From Candidatus Heimdallarchaeota archaeon (GTDB taxonomy: Archaea; Asgardarchaeota; Wukongarchaeia; Wukongarchaeales; JBHIFL01): DNA of 22,152 nucleotides. The position numbers and the translations under genes were made by a program. The notes below the pieces were generated by a model, which saw only the letters and a list, made by a program, of their open reading frames with translations, was not told where the DNA came from and did not search any database. Shown piece by piece: positions 235 to 20,614 of this stretch. Numbering within the stretch: the stretch's first letter is position 1; every line of letters begins with the position of its first letter. The stretch spans positions 1-22,152 of the forward strand of contig JBHIFL010000065.1 in the NCBI GenBank assembly GCA_046761065.1. Direction: 5' to 3'.

Positions 235-3200
235 ATGAAAATAAGCAAGGGATGCAATATTCTAAGTGCATTAATTATCTTTAGTATCATTATTAGTATA
301 TCAATTGGGCCGATTGGAGAATCGATAGGGGCAACCCAACCAAAGGTGGGGCGAATTGTAGTTTTAGCCGATGACTGGCCTATATCCGACAGTTATTGGA
401 GTACAAGTACGAACTCGTTCACCTTAAATACTTTTAGCTGGCTCACCGAATTTTCGAGTAGCAAACGGATCTTGAGAGATGCTTATTCTGATCCGCCGAT
501 CAAAACTAAAATGGTCGACACCCTCCAATCCAATGGGTATACGGTCACTATTTTAGACACCTCCAGTTGGACTCCTACCCTATTAGCAACCTATAATGCT
601 GTATTTATTGAGTATAGCTCCATCAATCATACACTGTTAACGGAATACGTAATGGGGGGTGGTGGAGTCTTCCTTATTGGGGGGCATTATGGATCTGAAC
701 AGCTGTTTAATGAGTTTCTCTCGAACTTTGGGATGAGTTTGCAGGAGCCAGTCTTTCCTGGTCATGTCACCCTGACGAGTTTCGAGCCTCATTCGGTGAC
801 AACCGGGGTTTCCGCCTTGGAAACATTGAATCCTACGCCAATCTTAGTTCATTCGAATGAACCCACAATTTTAGCATCCTGGGGAGACTGGAATTGGTTG
901 GTTACCTATTCAATAGAAAAAGTACCCACAACCGGGTTAGTGGCGTATTACCAATTTGAGTATAATGTGCGGGATTCGGTGGGCAGCAATCATGGCAGCA
1001 ATCATGGGGCTACGTATGTAGAGGGCAAAATCGGAACCGCATTGCACTTTGATGGGGTGGATGATTATGTGGAGATTCCTGATGCAGCTGTACTACGGCT
1101 TACACCCCCATTTACTCTGGAAGCATGGGTACACCCTGAAGACATAGGATCAGAAACAATTCCATCTAATACAATCATTTGTAAAGTTGGAGCCTTTTCT
1201 TCAAACGAAGTGAACTACGGGATGGACTGGCAGTGGGCGATATCCCCTTATTTTGCGTTTGAAACTGAAAGGGCTTCAGATGATAAGGACTTCGGAGTTT
1301 TTTCTAACAGCCATTCAATCAATCAATGGTATCACGTGGTAGGCCTCTATGATGGTACAACTATGAAAATTTATGTAAATGGCGTGTTAGAAGGGGAGAA
1401 ATACGTAGATAGCTTTCTTCCCTATACCGGCTCAGCTCCCCTCCAAATCGGTGGGGTTACGCTTCCTGGTCATGGTCCGGGTCAAGGTAATTTCAAAGGA
1501 GTGATCGACGAAGTCCGGATCTACAACCGAGCGTTATCCAAAGAAGAAGTTGCACAACACTACCAAGCCGAAATTACTCCGAGCGGAGTGCCCACCACCG
1601 CTGGAGGCGGAGATATCGAGTGGCAGCAGACCTATGATGGCACTGTAAGTACGATTCCAGGACCACTAGGGGCTTATTCGATCATCCAGACGGCGGATGA
1701 GGGCTTTATTCTCGCTGGACGAATGGACGAAGATGCTTGGCTGGTGAAAACCGACTCGCGTGGGAATATCGAGTGGCAGCAGACCTATGGCGGCTCGGGG
1801 ATCGATGCAACCTACGCAGTCATCCAGACGGCGGATGGCGGGTTTGCGCTGGCCGGTTACACCTGTCCCGAGGGCACGGACCCGGGGTCAGGTATGGATT
1901 TCTGGTTGGTGAAGACTGATGCTCGTGGAAACATGGAGTGGAACCGGACCTATAACCAAGGCGGCTTTAACGATTTTGTTTATGCGGGGATCCAGACAGC
2001 GGATGGAGGGTTTGTCCTTGCTGGGAGGACTGCTTTTTGCTATGAGGGCTGTTTTGATGCCTGGTTGGTGAAGACTGATGTCTACGGAAATATAGAATGG
2101 CAGCAGACCTATGGTGGTGATAGTGGTGAGGGAGCCCGCGCAATGATTCAGACGGCGGATGGCGGGTTTGCGCTCGCTGGGAGGACTTTTTCCTACGGGG
2201 CAGGTATGGATGACTTCTGGTTAGTGAAGACGGATGCCCACGGGAATATGGAGTGGCAGCAGACCTATGGCGGCGCTGAAAGAGATGGGCCCAGTGCAGT
2301 CATCCAGACGATGGACGGCGGTTTTATGTTGGCTGGCTACACTACGGATCCTGGGGCAGGGGATCCTACTAACTGGCTGGATGATATCTGGCTGGTGAAG
2401 ACTGATGCCCACGGGACAGTTCAGTGGAGTCAGACTTATGGTGGAAGTGGTGATGATGAAGCCTATGCGGTGATTCAGATGGAGGATGGGGGCTTTATTC
2501 TCGCTGGACGAATGGGTGAAGATGCTTGGCTGGCGAAAATCGATTCCTGTGGGAATATCGAGTGGCAGCAGACCTATGGCGGCGCTGGGGAGGAGGCGGC
2601 CCAGGCGGTGATCCAAACGGTGGATGAAGGGTTCGCATTCGCTGGTCACAAGGACGGGAATGCGTGGCTAGTGAAGATAACACCGTCCGCGTTTTCTGCA
2701 CCCTCCATTACGATCGTTAGTCCCAATGGAGGGGAGTCTTGGAGCGGAATGCACGCCCTCACGTGGACCGCCACTGATCCTCAAGCCGATCCGTTGACCT
2801 ACACCGTCTCTTACAGTCCCAATGGTGGGCAAACATGGACCCAACTGGCGACGGGGCTCAATGAGTCCTCGTATCTCTGGGATACCACCACGGTGGTGGA
2901 TGGGACGAATTATCTGATCAAGGTGGAGGCAACTGACGGTTCATATACTCGGATGGATCTCTCGAACGGATTCTTTGAAATCGCGAATAAGGCCCCGAAC
3001 ACCGCGCCATCGGTACAAGTCATCCGACCCAATGGGGGGGAAGAGGTCCGCACCATATACGAGATCCAATGGAATGCTACTGATCTTGAGGGGGATCCCC
3101 TCACCTATACGATCAGTTATAGTCCCAATGGTGGAGACACCTGGACTCAACTCGCGAGTGAGGTAACGGGGACCTCCTATCACTGGGATACTTCTGGCGT

Positions 3201-9304: not shown

Positions 9305-10462
9305 TCAAAAACCCCAGTCTCTCGAGATACGGAACCCTTTCATTAATTGGTAGAACGCGGCGAGGCGACTCCAAGTACTGGGATGACGAAAACATCTCCC
9401 CAGAAGGATTAATTTGTCACTAGAACTGAACCGAAATTCTCGTGTGTTTATGAGAACCCCAAGTCGAGCGAGGTCGGAATTATTGAAATAATGGTAAAGT
9501 AATTCATGAGATTGAAGCAGATCCTGCGAAACTATTGGCAACTCTTGTATTTTCTGTTCATAATGTGCGAGTTTCCAAGCTGAGTAATCTTCTTCTTCTA
9601 ATGCCTCAACAGCGGTTTCTCCTGCCAGTGATCCAGTCAACATGGCAGTGCCTATCCCACCAAAAAAAATTGGATTGGTAAAGCCTCCTGCGTCACCTGC
9701 AACCATAAAATTGTCCGTAAAGCATTGTTGCACTGGCCCCCCTGAAGGAATTATTCCTGCAATAAGTTGGTCAATTTTTCCGTTAAGATTCCGCATTTTC
9801 CTGAATTTATCTAACCGTTCTCGGGGATTCTTTCCACCACTAAGGCAAATCCCTACGTTAGCAATCCTCTCCCCCTTATTGAAAACCCACCCATAGCCGT
9901 GGGGAGTAATACTGAAATCAAAGTAAAATTGAAATCCTTCAACTTCAACCCCTTTAACACGATATTCTACCCCTTGAATAATCTCATTAGGAGGAGCAAG
10001 CTTCATTTGACGCATCATTCTAGAAGAAGGACCATCGGCAGCAATTACTATCTTTGCAAGGGTTTTTATTCCTTGGGATGTTGTTGCTTCTATACCATAG
10101 CTTGTTCGGGCTAAATATTTTACGGGTGTATTTGTGTGAAGATACGCTCCTTCATCTTGTGCGATGTCAATCAATTTCCTGTCAAAGACGGGTCTATTAA
10201 TCGATAAGGCATTGATTCGAATATAACCGTAATACCCTCCTGCAAAGTTTAAATATTGGATCTCGATAGGTTGACCCTCTTTAGGAGCCCACGGAAACCG
10301 ATTGAGCATAGGTTGACTCATTCCTTCACCACAAGCAAGCGGGAAGCCTACAATTGGGTGTTCCTCAAAAACCTGAACAGTAAATCCAGCTCCTGCTACT
10401 TTTTTTGCTGCAGAACTCCCTGCTGGTCCTGCTCCAACAACCAACACATCTGTTTTTTGCAA
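9305..10462 (-). CDS. Geranylgeranyl reductase family FAD oxidoreductase (DGGGPL reductase-like)
   Basis: DVLVVGAGPAGS, ACGEG, IAADG, PHGYGWVF, GDAGGFTNPIFFGGI. Confidence 0.88.
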   Translation of the reverse strand: MQKTDVLVVGAGPAGSSAAKKVAGAGFTVQVFEEHPIVGFPLACGEGMSQPMLNRFPWAPKEGQPIEIQYLNFAGGYYGYIRINALSINRPVFDRKLIDIAQDEGAYLHTNTPVKYLARTSYGIEATTSQGIKTLAKIVIAADGPSSRMMRQMKLAPPNEIIQGVEYRVKGVEVEGFQFYFDFSITPHGYGWVFNKGERIANVGICLSGGKNPRERLDKFRKMRNLNGKIDQLIAGIIPSGGPVQQCFTDNFMVAGDAGGFTNPIFFGGIGTAMLTGSLAGETAVEALEEEDYSAWKLAHYEQKIQELPIVSQDLLQSHELLYHYFNNSDLARLGVLINTREFRFSSSDKLILLGRCFRHPSTWSRLAAFYQLMKGFRISRDWGF

Positions 10463-14892: not shown

Positions 14893-14996
14893 AAATTGGC
14901 AAATAGTGTATCTGCTTTTCCTTACGATCTGAATCATGCATCGTACCGACTCTGAGCAATCGATTGAGCATAAAAATGCTGCTAAGTTCGATATAT

Positions 14997-15004
14997 AAGA
15001 CTTT
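14997..15004 (+). repeat. 8-bp target-site duplication, left copy (AAGACTTT)
   Basis: Identical to 16390-16397 and abuts IRL. Confidence 0.9.
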
Positions 15005-16389
15005 CTATGATTTTGCATAAAACTTCAGTGGACTGATCACCATTTTTTTAGAGCCGCCGACGAAAATAGGGAGACACCGAATTGCTCAAGTGATGAACTA
15101 TGTTATCAACTCGATGTCTCCTCAGGAATGAAGTCTTCTTTTTTAAAATGTTTTCCGGTGTTCACATCTTCCGCAAGCTTGGATTCCGAGTCCTCGAGAG
15201 CCCCATCACCGCTTTCCACGCGGATAAGTACAAGAAACACTACAAGACCTCCTCCGAGATCCTTACGGTCGTGAACATGAGCATAGAGAATGCCGATTCC
15301 CTCAAGGACATGATTGACGCCCTCAATGCCGATTCCCTCCTGCGTCAGGCCTTCGGCTATATCACCCCGGTCCAGCAGTCCCAACTCTCCCGGGATCTGC
15401 GGCAATGGGACTTGCGGATGTTCCACCAGATTTTACAGGCCCTATTGAAGCTAGCCAAGGCACACCAGCACTTCAAAGGCTTGAAACACGCGAAGTTGAT
15501 CCGAGATCTCGCCGCCTGGGACTTGACCTTCATTTTAGGCAAGCAGGTGGTGGCTCTCGACTCCACCTTCAAAATCCTGAACCCGGACACCTATCCCACG
15601 GTGGAATATGGCTACTGCACCCTGACCGGATGCAAAGAACCCGGCCTCAAGGCCCATCTCGCCCACCACGTCACAGCAGACACTCCAATTGGGCTGGAAG
15701 TGACTCCCGGCAACGTCCACGACTCCACGCAATTCACAGCCCTGTTCAGCTGGGTAACCCGAGTGCTGGATCCAAAGGAGGTCATTCTGACCTATGACAA
15801 GGCGTATTACAAGATAGCCTGGTTTGACGAGCTGTGTGAGGCGGGATACTGGTTCGTGACCCCCCCTTGAAGAAGAATAGTCTGAATCAAGCTCAGATTT
15901 TAAGCGTTGAAGAGTGCTCTCAGAACAATATTCGGATAACAGACCGGGAAATACGGCTTAATACCGGGACCCACAACCTGCGGGCGGTGCACCTGGCCAA
16001 CCAGACCACCGGCGAGGAGTTCCGCCTCCTGACCAATGTCATGGAATGCGAGGCGGAGACGCTCCAAAGGCTGTATAAGGCCCGTTGGCAGATAGAAATC
16101 CTGTTCCGGGCGGTGAAGCAATGTTTCGGACTAAAAACAAAACGGCCAATCGGCCGGTCATTGAATGCCGTCATGATCCCGATCTTCTGTACGATCATAG
16201 CGTACTTAGTGCTCAGTATCTACCGGAGGATGGTGTGCGGGGGGATGACGGTGTTCGAACTAAAGAGACAGATTAAATACGCGCGCCAAAGCTCATGCCA
16301 CGCATGTGACGCGGGAGAATGGGGGAGGAGGTGTCGAGAGGTGAACTTCGCCCCAAAGGAGGTGAATAAATTTTAATGCAAAATCAAAG
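15005..16389 (+). mobile_element. IS4-family insertion sequence, 1385 bp, with intact ends
   Basis: IRL CTATGATTTTGCATAAAA (15005-15022) matches the reverse complement of IRR, CTTTGATTTTGCATTAAA (16372-16389), at 16/18. Direct repeat AAGACTTT at 14997-15004 and 16390-16397. Visibly more GC-rich than the flanks. Confidence 0.93.
15100..16376 (+). pseudogene. IS4-family DDE transposase split by a frameshift at a C7 run (ORFs 15100-15870 and 15867-16376)
   Basis: N-part has a DUF4372-like ADKYKKHY...SLKD segment, ALDST (D1) and TYDKAY (D2). C-part has RLLTN and Y-x2-R-W-x-I-E-x6-K (YREK). The junction FVTPP*/LKKN puts the second ORF in the -1 frame. Confidence 0.85.
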
Positions 16390-16397
16390 AAGACTTT
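16390..16397 (+). repeat. 8-bp target-site duplication, right copy (AAGACTTT)
   Basis: Identical to 14997-15004 and abuts IRR. Confidence 0.9.
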
Positions 16398-16404
16398 ATG
16401 AAAA

Positions 16405-16412
16405 TTTATAAA
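16405..16412 (+). promoter_or_regulatory. Putative TATA box of the ABC operon
   Basis: TTTATAAA preceded by purine-rich GAAAA (BRE-like), about 40 nt upstream of ATG 16452. Confidence 0.55.
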
Positions 16413-16451
16413 GGTCTTTCCGGATACTACAGAAGGTTGGGGATAAATTTT

Positions 16452-17381
16452 ATGTCTCAGTCTGCTCTACGGGTTTCAAACCTGACGAAGTTCTATGGGA
16501 ATTTTAAAGCTTTGGATTCTGTTTCTTTTTCGGTAGAGGCGGGATGGATCTATGGTTACCTTGGACCAAATGGGGCAGGAAAGACGACCACTATCCGGAC
16601 GATGTTAGGCCTACTTCGACCCGATGAAGGTGAAGTGCAGATCACAGGGGTTAACCCGTATAAAAATCCGGTGCAGACTCTTCAGATCGTTGGTTATGCC
16701 CCGGAACTTCCCAATCTGCAGACCTTCTTCAATGGCGAGCAGCTACTCGATTTTACTGGTAAGATTTTTGGGCTATCGCATAAGGTCAGGAGGGATAGGG
16801 TTAAACAACTCCTACAACTCGTGGGTCTAAAGGATGTTAAGAAGAAGATCGGAAAGTACAGTAAAGGTATGGTTCAGAGGCTCTCCATCGCCCAATCCCT
16901 CATTAACAACCCTACCATCCTCATTATGGACGAACCCACAATTGGGATGGATCCAGAGGCCACCGCCCACTTCAGGGATCTTATAACAAACTTCCCAAAA
17001 GAAGGGAAGACGGTATTTATCTCATCCCATCTCCTCGGTGAGGTTCAGAGGATCTGTACCCATGTAGGAGTAATCGACAAGGGCAAAATCATCGTCGACG
17101 GTCCAATATCACGGGTACTGGAAGCCTTCACCCAACAGTGGGTCGTGGAGGCTGAGTTGAAACAGGTAACCCCAGAGATCATCACCCACCTTCAACAGCT
17201 CAGTTATGTACAGAATGTCCAGACTTTGGGGAACAAGCTCCTCATTGAGCTTAATGAGAAGAAGGACTTTCGGGGTGAGATATCCTCTGAGATCGTAAAA
17301 CACAAAGGCGTTCTGCTGAGCTTGAACCTCCACAGGATCACACTTGAGGAGGCTTATCTACGGGCCTTGAGGGGAGGTTGA
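16452..17381 (+). CDS. ABC-2/DrrA-type transporter ATP-binding protein
   Basis: Walker A GPNGAGKTT, signature YSKGMVQR, Walker B ILIMDEPT, H-loop SSHLLGEV. ATG 16452 is preferred to 16398, whose 5' extension covers the TATA box. Confidence 0.95.
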   Translation: MSQSALRVSNLTKFYGNFKALDSVSFSVEAGWIYGYLGPNGAGKTTTIRTMLGLLRPDEGEVQITGVNPYKNPVQTLQIVGYAPELPNLQTFFNGEQLLDFTGKIFGLSHKVRRDRVKQLLQLVGLKDVKKKIGKYSKGMVQRLSIAQSLINNPTILIMDEPTIGMDPEATAHFRDLITNFPKEGKTVFISSHLLGEVQRICTHVGVIDKGKIIVDGPISRVLEAFTQQWVVEAELKQVTPEIITHLQQLSYVQNVQTLGNKLLIELNEKKDFRGEISSEIVKHKGVLLSLNLHRITLEEAYLRALRGG

Positions 17382-18250
17382 TACCAGTGCACTTCCTTCA
17401 GAGGTCTGCTAACCTCATAGTTTATGAAGTTCGGAGGGCGTTGGCAAAGAAAAAGATCTATGTCTTGTTGATTTTGGCATTCGCGCTTCAAATAGGCATC
17501 TATACGTTGTTCAAATACGTATTCACCAATCCTCCCCCTGAAGTTACCATTACTGGGCCTCCCCTGGAAGAGTTTAAAGGGACTATGTGGCTTCTCGGTG
17601 TGTTGGGTGGTTCTCAAGGTTTATTCATTCCTATTATCGCCATAATCATCGCTGGTGGATCTATGTCTGAAGAATACGAACACGGAACCGCTGACATTCT
17701 GCTTTCAAAACCTGTTACGAGGATAGAATATGTGACCGGCAAGTATTTGGGCGGTTTATCGTTTTTAAGCCTTATAATCGCTCTGATCACCGGTTTGGGC
17801 GTTGCCTTGGCCTACGGACTTTTCGGCCCGCAGGATTCCCTTCATCTTGTTCCTGTTGTGTACATGGCCCTAGTCTACGCAAACCTCCTCTTCTTCTCAC
17901 TGGCCTTCATGTTCAGCGAGATCATCAGAAGCACCACATCCGCCATTATGGCCGCTATCGGCATATTCATCGGCTCCATAGCGGTCGGCAGCTACCTTTC
18001 CGTGCTATACGCCATGACACAACAACAGCTTTACTTGAATATTAGCAGATGGCTTCCATACTGGACCACCTCAAACTTTCCTAGCTTCGTGATCTCAGAG
18101 CTCATGACTACTCCAAGCAGCCCCTTCGTGTCGGTACAAAGTGGAAACCTTCAACTAGCTGCCACAATTATTGCGGTTTACACCACTGCCTCCATCTTAA
18201 TAGCCACATTCAAACTAATCAGATCTGATATTACAAAGAAACCTGATTAA
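17378..18250 (+). CDS. ABC-2 type transporter permease
   Basis: About six hydrophobic segments; SEEYEHGT..ILLSKPVTR..Y..GKYLG motif; TTGA overlap with the ATPase stop. Confidence 0.92.
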   Translation: MIPVHFLQRSANLIVYEVRRALAKKKIYVLLILAFALQIGIYTLFKYVFTNPPPEVTITGPPLEEFKGTMWLLGVLGGSQGLFIPIIAIIIAGGSMSEEYEHGTADILLSKPVTRIEYVTGKYLGGLSFLSLIIALITGLGVALAYGLFGPQDSLHLVPVVYMALVYANLLFFSLAFMFSEIIRSTTSAIMAAIGIFIGSIAVGSYLSVLYAMTQQQLYLNISRWLPYWTTSNFPSFVISELMTTPSSPFVSVQSGNLQLAATIIAVYTTASILIATFKLIRSDITKKPD

Positions 18251-18416
18251 CTGCCCCTTCTTTCTCTAACACAAAATTTCTTAGCGTCTCTCGACATTTG
18301 GTGGAATCTAAGATTTTCTAGGGCAAAGGTCCTATCGTCACGACCTCAGAAAGCCATTAGATCTCTTTAGAATAAAAAAAGTAACAAGAAAGGACATCTC
18401 TTGGTTAATATAAATA

Positions 18417-18579
18417 TGGTAGCGGGGGGTGGATTTGAACCACCGATATCTCGACGGGGGAGTAGATTTCAACTACCACCGCTCTCGGGGTATCTCCGCG
18501 CGAGCTTATGAGCCCCGCGGGATTTCAGGCTGCCAACAAGACTTAATACGTAGCAATCTCCTGGCTACCCCACCCCGCT
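18417..18579 (-). tRNA. Initiator tRNA-Met (CAT) with three introns
   Basis: Exons 18579-18558, 18523-18507, 18491-18484 and 18447-18417 splice to 78 nt: AGCGGGGTGGGGTAGCCAGGAGATCCCGCGGGGCTCATAACCCCGAGATCGGTGGTTCAAATCCACCCCCCGCTACCA. A1-U72 pair, three consecutive G-C pairs in the anticodon stem, encoded CCA. Introns: 34 nt (20a/21), 15 nt (37/38), 36 nt (45/46). Confidence 0.92.
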
Positions 18580-19409: not shown

Positions 19410-19567
19410 GGGCCCGTAGCTCAGCCTGGATTGTCTAATCTCCGTCGTTTAGATTAGTGCTAGACAGAGCACCGGCCTTCTATCCACTAGGGGAGCCAGC
19501 CGGTGGTCATGGGTTCAAAAAAAGCAAAGGATAACCTTTGTCATGGAGACTCCCATCGGGCCCGCCA
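19410..19567 (+). tRNA. tRNA-Arg (TCT) with three introns
   Basis: Exons 19410-19431, 19466-19482, 19498-19519 and 19551-19567 splice to 78 nt: GGGCCCGTAGCTCAGCCTGGATAGAGCACCGGCCTTCTAAGCCGGTGGTCATGGGTTCAAATCCCATCGGGCCCGCCA. Introns: 34 nt (20a/21), 15 nt (37/38), 31 nt (59/60). Confidence 0.92.
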
Positions 19568-19873
19568 CTAATTTACTTTTTGGAAGGATTGATTTAATAT
19601 AAAGTAGCTAGAATTATAAATTTGAGGATATCCATCTTCAAGAGTAAGAGATAGAGATCCTTTTCTGATACAAATTTCGATGGTTGATGGAGATGGAGTG
19701 TTAGGGAGATTCGGACTCCCAGAATAATATTAATTCCGATAAAAAACTTTGGATTAAAAAGTCACCCTATACCATATTAGAACTTGGTAAAGAGATAATA
19801 AATTGGTCTGCATTTGACTCCACGTGAGCTATTCTGATCGGTTGTTTATATCAATGGGGCAAAGGTGATAGTG

Positions 19874-20614
19874 ATGATTAACCTTGAGATTGTCGCCCAT
19901 CGAGGCGTCCCCCAAGAAAAACCTGAAAATACTATTTCTTCATTTCAACGGGCTATTGAACTAGGCGCAGATGCTATTGAACTTGATATACGACTAGCAC
20001 GCGACCGAGTCCCCATCGTCTATCACTACTTCTATCTCGACGAAGCCACATCAGGCTCTGGGTTGATATCCAACTATGCTCTTGCTCAACTCCAAGATGT
20101 GAAAGTCCTAGGAAATGATCGGAAGCCAGTCAAGGATGCTAGAATCCCAACACTTTACTGGACCTAATTGGTGGACAGATAGGGTTAGAGATTGAAATCA
20201 AAGGTCCGGAGTCAGAGTCCTCAAAAGTTGTAGGAGATGTACTCAACAGGTTCAAACATCTGTGGGAGACGATAGAGGTCACTTCCTATGAGCCTGTATT
20301 GCTTCTCGACATTCAGCAACGTTGCCTAAAACTAGCTACGAATTTGCTTTTTCCACGATCTGAAAATTGGATGAAATTAGATGTGATCGCATATCTTGCA
20401 ACACATCGAGCTAAACTTGCCCAAGCTAGAGCAATTCACTTACATCCGACTCAGCTATCATCCAAAGTTGTTTCCGCAATTCGATCTCACGGAATAGAAG
20501 TACATGCTTGGGATGTAAACGATGAACAGTCACTTAGAACCGCTGTGAAGCTAGGCATACCCCCGGGTTTGTACCGATAACCTGCAACAAACCCTTAATT
20601 TCCGGGAACGGTAA
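19874..20614 (+). pseudogene. Glycerophosphodiester phosphodiesterase (GDPD/UgpQ-like), two frameshifts
   Basis: IVAHRG...PENT..SF..A...GADAIELDI, then RIPTL. A frame break at about 20155 continues LDLIGGQIGLEIEIKG...TSYEP...HAWDVND. A second break at the C5 run near 20560 continues GIPRVCTDN to TAA 20612-20614. Confidence 0.85.

Follow-up and report, generated by a model that had tools for sequence, protein, structure and literature searches.

How introns entered archaeal tRNA genes was called 'the central open problem' in an Asgard census of October 2026 (Goswami et al. 2026, bioRxiv 10.64898/2026.10.13.758758), and copying of a gene's own exons is not among the tests listed there. The question arises in concrete form at an initiator tRNA gene in the window, the whole stretch of 22,152 nucleotides analysed here from the genome of a Candidatus Heimdallarchaeota archaeon (G000), where the third of three introns resembles the T-arm of the gene that it interrupts. 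The features of this gene are as follows.

18417..18579, minus strand: tRNA-iMet(CAT) gene with three introns and an encoded CCA, the sole copy found in G000.
18558..18579, minus strand: exon 1, positions 1-20a; the boundary is set from BHB geometry, and a 1-nt slide gives the same product.
18524..18557, minus strand: intron 1, D-loop 20a/21, 34 nt, unlike any exon and missing in the relative L026.
18507..18523, minus strand: exon 2, positions 21-37, with the anticodon CAT, from the spliced cloverleaf.
18492..18506, minus strand: intron 2, canonical 37/38, 15 nt, from the spliced cloverleaf and comparison of orthologs.
18484..18491, minus strand: exon 3, 8 nt, positions 38-45, of which 40-43 are 18489-18486.
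18448..18483, minus strand: intron 3, variable loop 45/46, 36 nt, precisely missing in L055 and in run X8.
18461..18477, minus strand: putative T-arm-derived core of intron 3, 13/17 against the gene's own T-arm (16/17 in the ortholog L026).
18457..18477, minus strand: 21-nt stretch of intron 3, 17/21 identical to exon positions 49-69 in an ungapped comparison.
18454..18482, minus strand: intron 3 hairpin, made of the outer BHB helix h' (18482-18479 with 18457-18454) and a shifted inner stem.
18474-18472 with 18463-18461, minus strand: the shifted inner stem, present in four of four close orthologs.
18448..18453, minus strand: 3' end of intron 3, with the central-helix 3' strand CGAG (3/4 pairs, identical to exon positions 42-45) and the first two bases of the 3' bulge.
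18417..18447, minus strand: exon 4, positions 46-76, with the real T-arm (18444-18428), the acceptor 3' strand and CCA; the putative template of the copy.

Removal of the three introns (34, 15 and 36 nt) yields a 78-nt tRNA-Met(CAT) that is recognised by ARAGORN and bears the hallmarks of an initiator, A1-U72 and three G-C pairs. The unspliced gene is too interrupted for these programs, and neither ARAGORN nor Rfam called it in the window. The host genome represents a family of its own, with two further genomes (G001 and G002) in the same order, and its closest relatives by rpl12/P1 carry the NCBI labels Hodarchaeota or Heimdallarchaeota. Among the relatives, the iMet locus is syntenic in the order deoxyhypusine synthase, iMet, rpl12/P1, tRNA-Arg. 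Deoxyhypusine synthase directly adjoins iMet in L027, L055, L056 and L065; in the window the two are separated by the stretch 14900-18400, which holds a split DDE transposase (15100-16376) and an ABC transporter pair (16398-18250). The neighbouring tRNA-Arg(TCT) (19410-19567, plus strand) also has three introns. Its 37/38 intron is missing in L059, L063, L065, L070 and L026, and an additional T-stem insert is found in L026 and L066, suggesting fast intron turnover. Further along, a glycerophosphodiester phosphodiesterase gene lies in two pieces (19865-20580, plus strand; GDPD residues 1-88 and 177-234), which may reflect a frameshift, a pseudogene or a hidden intron. Elsewhere in the genome, contig C5 of G000 carries a 259-nt tRNA-like gene, a very long interrupted candidate whose inserts look nested and in which 8 nt are repeated internally close to the T-arm.

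The first-pass annotation had inferred a rescue of the third intron by bulge-helix-bulge (BHB) splicing, and the frame of a BHB motif is present. Removal of the intron restores a complete cloverleaf, and the intron-free relatives have the identical junction. The bulges measure 3 nt on each side (AG|A and AT|A). The central helix pairs exon positions 40-43 with the intron CGAG in three of four pairs, with a C41.A mismatch that makes the motif a relaxed one; in L026 all four pairs are formed. Helix h' has 4 bp and shows one both-sided change among four orthologs. An outer exon helix h is missing, C39 being unable to pair with U47 and A38 with C48, so that the predicted motif is the short form and not the full hBHBh'. 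A BHB form without the outer exon helix is common at non-canonical sites. The genome encodes the splicing machinery, with two EndA-family genes (PF01974 matches) and one RtcB, and intron 3 is best read, from its predicted pairing, as an ordinary EndA-type, non-canonical, protein-spliced archaeal tRNA intron. EndA would cut after G45 and before A46, and RtcB would join the exons. Because positions 40-43 belong to both the anticodon stem and the 5' strand of the BHB central helix, which borrows them, the anticodon stem would have to be open during cleavage.

The likeness to the exon was compared on the minus strand. Intron positions 18477-18457 and exon positions 18444-18424 share 17 of 21 bases without a gap, the differences falling at tRNA positions 52, 56, 62 and 65; the sequence and the coordinates first given for this match to the T-arm and acceptor strand are correct. 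Shuffling had been proposed as a check, and the match proved to be beyond chance: P=0.0008 with dinucleotide shuffles on both strands and P=0.0004 with gapped local alignment. Under a null that preserves the base pairs along with the stem (5 bp) and the loop (7 nt), the values were P=0.0015-0.003 for the 17-nt arm and P<1e-4 for the 21-mer. Introns 1 and 2 of the same gene showed no comparable match to their own tRNA (P 0.79 and 0.38). When 107 candidate intron-bearing tRNA genes, some of them false positives, were ranked by the match to their own T-arm, the iMet of L026 came first, the elongator tRNA-Met of G001 second and the window gene third. The T-arm core of intron 3 is thus very probably derived from the exon, as judged by sequence comparison. 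The start of the intron was also considered as a minihelix copied from the 5' end of the tRNA, and this reading was set aside; it needs two gaps, and L026 has no such likeness.

Orthologs were gathered by pattern scans and by look-ups via the neighbouring rpl12 gene. The 45/46 introns of the family all share roughly one layout, and their alignment, which the first-pass annotation had suggested, bears out that they keep the T-arm resemblance. The copy is exact over 16 nt in L026 (0/5000 shuffles), where it begins six bases past the splice site as in the window and scores 16/17 against its own iMet T-arm versus 12 against the eMet arm. The intron of L065 aligns end to end with exon positions 46-71 followed by 42-45 (26/30, with one 3-nt insert), and three of its four changes are C-to-T. 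Wear is greater in L027 (P 0.01) and L056 (P 0.003), the intron of L070 retains the stem with a different loop (P 0.01), and that of L061 is truncated by the contig end and retains a similar A-rich loop. In six more distant Asgard genomes the 45/46 introns, 23-27 nt long, bear no resemblance to the T-arm, and the 45/46 intron is missing in 16 of the 22 iMet genes sampled. The match of run X1 to the window shows no difference, but this run may be where the window comes from. Other short variable-loop inserts, after position 46 or 47 and unrelated to the 45/46 family, are seen in the iMet genes of L039 and L040 (G378, G381) and of L030.

Absence of the intron is also documented. L055, which is nested among intron-bearing relatives in the tree, has introns 1 and 2 but exactly lacks intron 3, and a contig in run X8 is exactly without intron 3 as well; by tree position and junction, this state is best read as precise loss. 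The basal branch raises a different point. L026 sits on a long branch, and its flanks are only 57% identical to the window although its T-arm copy is exact; such a combination calls for a more recent birth, for selection or for gene conversion by the exon, and is not accounted for by simple neutral decay after a single old event. The exact copy rests on one contig, since the kin L066-L069 have no iMet beside rpl12. An assembly artefact is nevertheless unlikely because the 16-nt repeat has distinct, BHB-forming flanks.

A second tRNA in the order offers an independent case. The elongator tRNA-Met gene of G001 (L098:1533-1567, minus strand; G001:C55, about 9855-9895) has a 35-nt intron at 44/45 with its own T-arm at the tip. 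This intron matches the T-arm of its gene over 14 exact nt (15/17, P=0.0012), and its stem is that of its own gene (AAGGG) and not that of iMet (GGTGG), with 15/17 for the former versus 11/17 for the latter. The congener G002 has the same eMet gene with the same flanks (L116), and there the intron is missing. As for iMet in these two genomes, the gene of G001 has its 5' half beyond the contig end and an intron-free 45/46 junction, and no iMet gene was found in G002. The match to the own arm in two different tRNAs therefore indicates that the template was the host gene.

This leads to the question of how the exon was copied. Intron 3 was probably copied from its host gene by tandem duplication and is now decaying neutrally, a reading drawn from the order of the repeated segments. 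For the window clade it is favoured because the intron starts in register with A46, a C-run follows the T-arm, and the intron ends in CGAG, identical to exon positions 42-45. At its birth a short segment, about positions 42/44 to 70/71, would have been duplicated head to tail, and slippage could have been favoured by CCCCG, which is present at 39-43 and again at 66-70. CGAG, with which the second copy starts, would then pair with positions 40-43, the C-run of the first copy would pair with its own G-rich start, and small slips of +3 nt and +2 nt would have completed the bulges. Afterwards selection would have held only the BHB frame and the hairpin, leaving the T-arm copy to decay as a footprint that has no function in itself; among the orthologs the loop and the stem register differ, as signs of such decay. 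The close clade ends in CGAG, the imperfect partner that a direct repeat supplies, and L026 and the six distant introns have the perfect CGGG. Two points count against the tandem model, namely that the two additional slips were chosen after the fact and that a fresh tandem duplicate would not have spliced correctly. Moreover, the acceptor-like C-run doubles as the 3' strand of the BHB helix; since other orthologs have TCGC, TCAT or CTGT there (L056, L070, L061 and L026 differ), it may be partly convergent.

A hairpin-primed fold-back, in which the exon source is the same and the mechanism another, is a less likely alternative. The variable loop and T-arm would be copied, the new strand would fold on the T-stem, copy from position 48 back to 39/40 and resume at 45/46; such a course, possible but on balance doubtful, would place a T-arm at the tip of the intron stem, supply the partner of the central helix at once and need only a small deletion to open the bulge. 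The introns of L026 and of the G001 eMet have the T-arm at the stem tip and lack the acceptor strand, so that for these two a fold-back copy fits at least as well, accounting as it does for a near-exact T-arm without the acceptor strand after it. The bases behind their T-arms resemble the reverse complement of positions 39/40-48 less two bases (ATCGGG in L026, ACTAAGG in G001). However, the 3' ends of BHB introns always complement the exon, so that this fit is partly guaranteed. Scores of the two models divide likewise: the tandem model is far better for the window and L065 (36-39 versus 19-22), and fold-back is slightly ahead for L026 (32 versus 29). The precise losses in L055 and X8 imply that a re-gain at the same site is possible. 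With fold-back, L026 and the G001 eMet might, with rather low probability, be young and separate births, a view with which exon origin is still compatible; yet L026 and L056 share the offset, a U at 65 and GAT before the stem, which points to one ancestral intron. Extending this, it is conceivable, if rather unlikely, that variable-loop introns in this Asgard order were repeatedly born from their own T-arm by a hairpin-primed template switch that made most of the BHB in one step, and in that tentative scheme the L026 iMet and G001 eMet introns would be young separate births and the window intron older. If true, recurrent births of this type would be a defined, repeatable way to make spliceable tRNA introns from scratch.

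With either mechanism, the claim that the intron derives from a duplicated iMet 3' end stands in its exon origin, carried by L026, L065 and the G001 eMet, and finds no support in the integrative-element route that had been offered for it. According to that route, the copy is the att-site scar of a virus or plasmid that integrated at the tRNA 3' end and was later deleted, which is improbable. Integration into tRNA genes, with duplication of part of the gene, is known for archaeal elements (PMC3293823, PMC4090602), and a fully deleted element would leave a trace much like a tandem duplication. In other Asgard genomes (L073 and L074; G126:C20 and G130:C58), tRNA 3' ends survive as a pair of tandem remnants with T-loop and acceptor strand; these lie about 48 nt from each other, no 5' half is visible, and they are possible att scars. 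In the window, on the other hand, no integrase was found on the contig or beside the iMet gene, the integrase matches of G000 lie on other contigs with no tRNA fragment beside them, and no second iMet 3' half was found in the assembly (genome 91% complete). The family-wide synteny is intact, with no foreign DNA between the two copies, and Goswami et al. (2026, bioRxiv 10.64898/2026.10.13.758758) saw no enrichment of mobile elements near intron gains. No viral att copy was found either; an exact-pattern scan of viral contigs for attP gave 12 matches, all of them whole phage tRNA genes with other sequence at position 66, in a collection in which Asgard elements are thinly sampled. Viral contigs L043, L046, L048-L050 and L053 carry iMet-like tRNA genes with unusual anticodon-loop bases after CAT. 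A 14-nt match on G000:C94 near an integrase was rejected as chance, lying inside an ORF with E=0.25. That contig holds an integrase, a transposase-like ORF and lipoprotein-like ORFs, and looks foreign to the bin (contamination 8.2%).

The first-pass annotation had further read the differences at 52 and 62 as a compensatory swap that keeps a T-arm-like hairpin, and had proposed a decoy role. Of these, the A-U pair can indeed form in the T-arm register; a maintained T-arm, however, is not supported, the register being broken in three of four close orthologs, and the change from G to A at 52 may just as well belong to a 3-nt insert. In the isolated window intron, the pairing probability of the T-arm register is about 0.1 versus 0.86-0.90 for the shifted register, and in the close orthologs the values are 0.1 or less versus 0.86-1.0. 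The shifted register is 100% paired across the four close orthologs, among which the sole both-sided change lies in the outer BHB helix; neither register has a significant covariation score with these four related sequences. A 5-bp stem with a 7-nt loop conserved with covariation was found only in L026.

That the intron is kept as a functional T-arm mimic, be it a decoy for T-arm enzymes, a folding switch or a functional excised circular RNA, is accordingly very improbable, and for the window clade this reading is largely refuted. The perfect T-arm of L026 folds in the true register (four pairs, pair probability 0.93-0.99) on its long branch, the loop AAA is invariant in the four close orthologs, and the full three-intron window precursor can take the T-arm register, which appears in its minimum-energy fold. 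Yet the invariant T-loop bases (54-56 and 58) are not all kept in the close orthologs: position 56 is G, G, A and T, and L027 has A at position 55. The loop of L070 is a different one, no predicted fold pairs the acceptor 5' strand with the intron, and the intron is cleanly lost in the close relatives L055 and X8. A resemblance by chance or convergence, in which a stem of G+C and a loop of A+T beside a G+C-rich tRNA happen to look like a T-arm, draws on the very many introns scanned, on a match of only 13/17 within the window arm and on low-complexity C-runs, but is barely credible beside P<=0.003 under the structure-preserving null, the 16 exact bases of L026 and the 14 of the G001 eMet, the specificity of each host's intron for its own arm and the six distant 45/46 introns without any likeness; it is refuted for the T-arm core, though not for the acceptor-like C-run alone.

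Intron 3 may be set beside several known systems. Asgard archaea are known to have tRNA genes with several introns, non-canonical ones included (Valentin-Alvarado et al. 2024, PMC11291895), and, as in those introns (PMC11291895; bioRxiv 10.64898/2026.10.13.758758), the gene has multiple introns and the intron is short, sits at a non-canonical site in a BHB frame and is patchy among relatives. Unlike in the others, its source is legible and appears to be the T-arm of the host gene. In Thermoproteales, as related in two reviews (Fujishima et al. 2010, via PMC4090602 and PMC4390854), similar introns recur in different tRNAs by transposition. That account and the present case both involve non-canonical introns that were gained late, within the limits set by the BHB requirement; in contrast to what the reviews relate, intron 3 is exon-like, each host has its own arm, and no second copy of the intron was found in another tRNA of the genome (91% complete). 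For the Caldiarchaeum tRNA-Thr(GGU), which likewise has an intron at 45/46, a mobile-element model of tRNA disruption was proposed (Sugahara et al. 2012, PMC3293823). Duplicated tRNA sequence and gain or loss of an intron among close relatives are shared with that case, but in Caldiarchaeum the tRNA fragment is 1.8 kb distant and flanks a recombinase gene, and the paper does not call the intron itself exon-derived, whereas at the window locus the copy itself is the intron and no element is present.

Transposition and mobile elements are treated in the reviews and in the Caldiarchaeum paper (PMC4090602, PMC4390854, PMC3293823). An archaeal tRNA intron made from its own T-arm was not found in the literature searched (most subscription journals lay outside its coverage), nor did that search yield a relevant paper on template switching or exon-like introns in archaea. 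Judged by its predicted architecture, intron 3 belongs to a known kind of intron, and its origin is unusually easy to read. The locus displays one route of intron entry, local copying of a host exon, and provides a series of an exact copy, decayed copies and a precise loss, with a second tRNA that supports it independently. A cheap test follows as well, the comparison of each young intron with the exons of its own host.

A strict scan for double T-loops covered a wider set. The 400 Asgard genomes scanned gave 17 matches, no more than a control with the reversed pattern. One clear case in a tRNA intron came out of it, the elongator gene of G001, with L087 as the sole match that is a T-arm copy within an intron; the tandem 3' remnants are L073 and L074, and the other matches look like chance. 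The 101 genomes of the class around a Thermofilaceae genome (G400) gave no match. The own-exon route looks uncommon, and because the scan detects near-intact T-loops only, this route is regarded as a contributor and not as the general answer. A repeat of another kind was seen in a tRNA-Pro gene of G002 (L119; G002:C156, ending near 3036), in which a 24-nt stretch from the D-arm to the anticodon stem is repeated 23 nt further on, inside an insert in the anticodon region (score 14), and is likely a tandem duplication of the gene's own exon.
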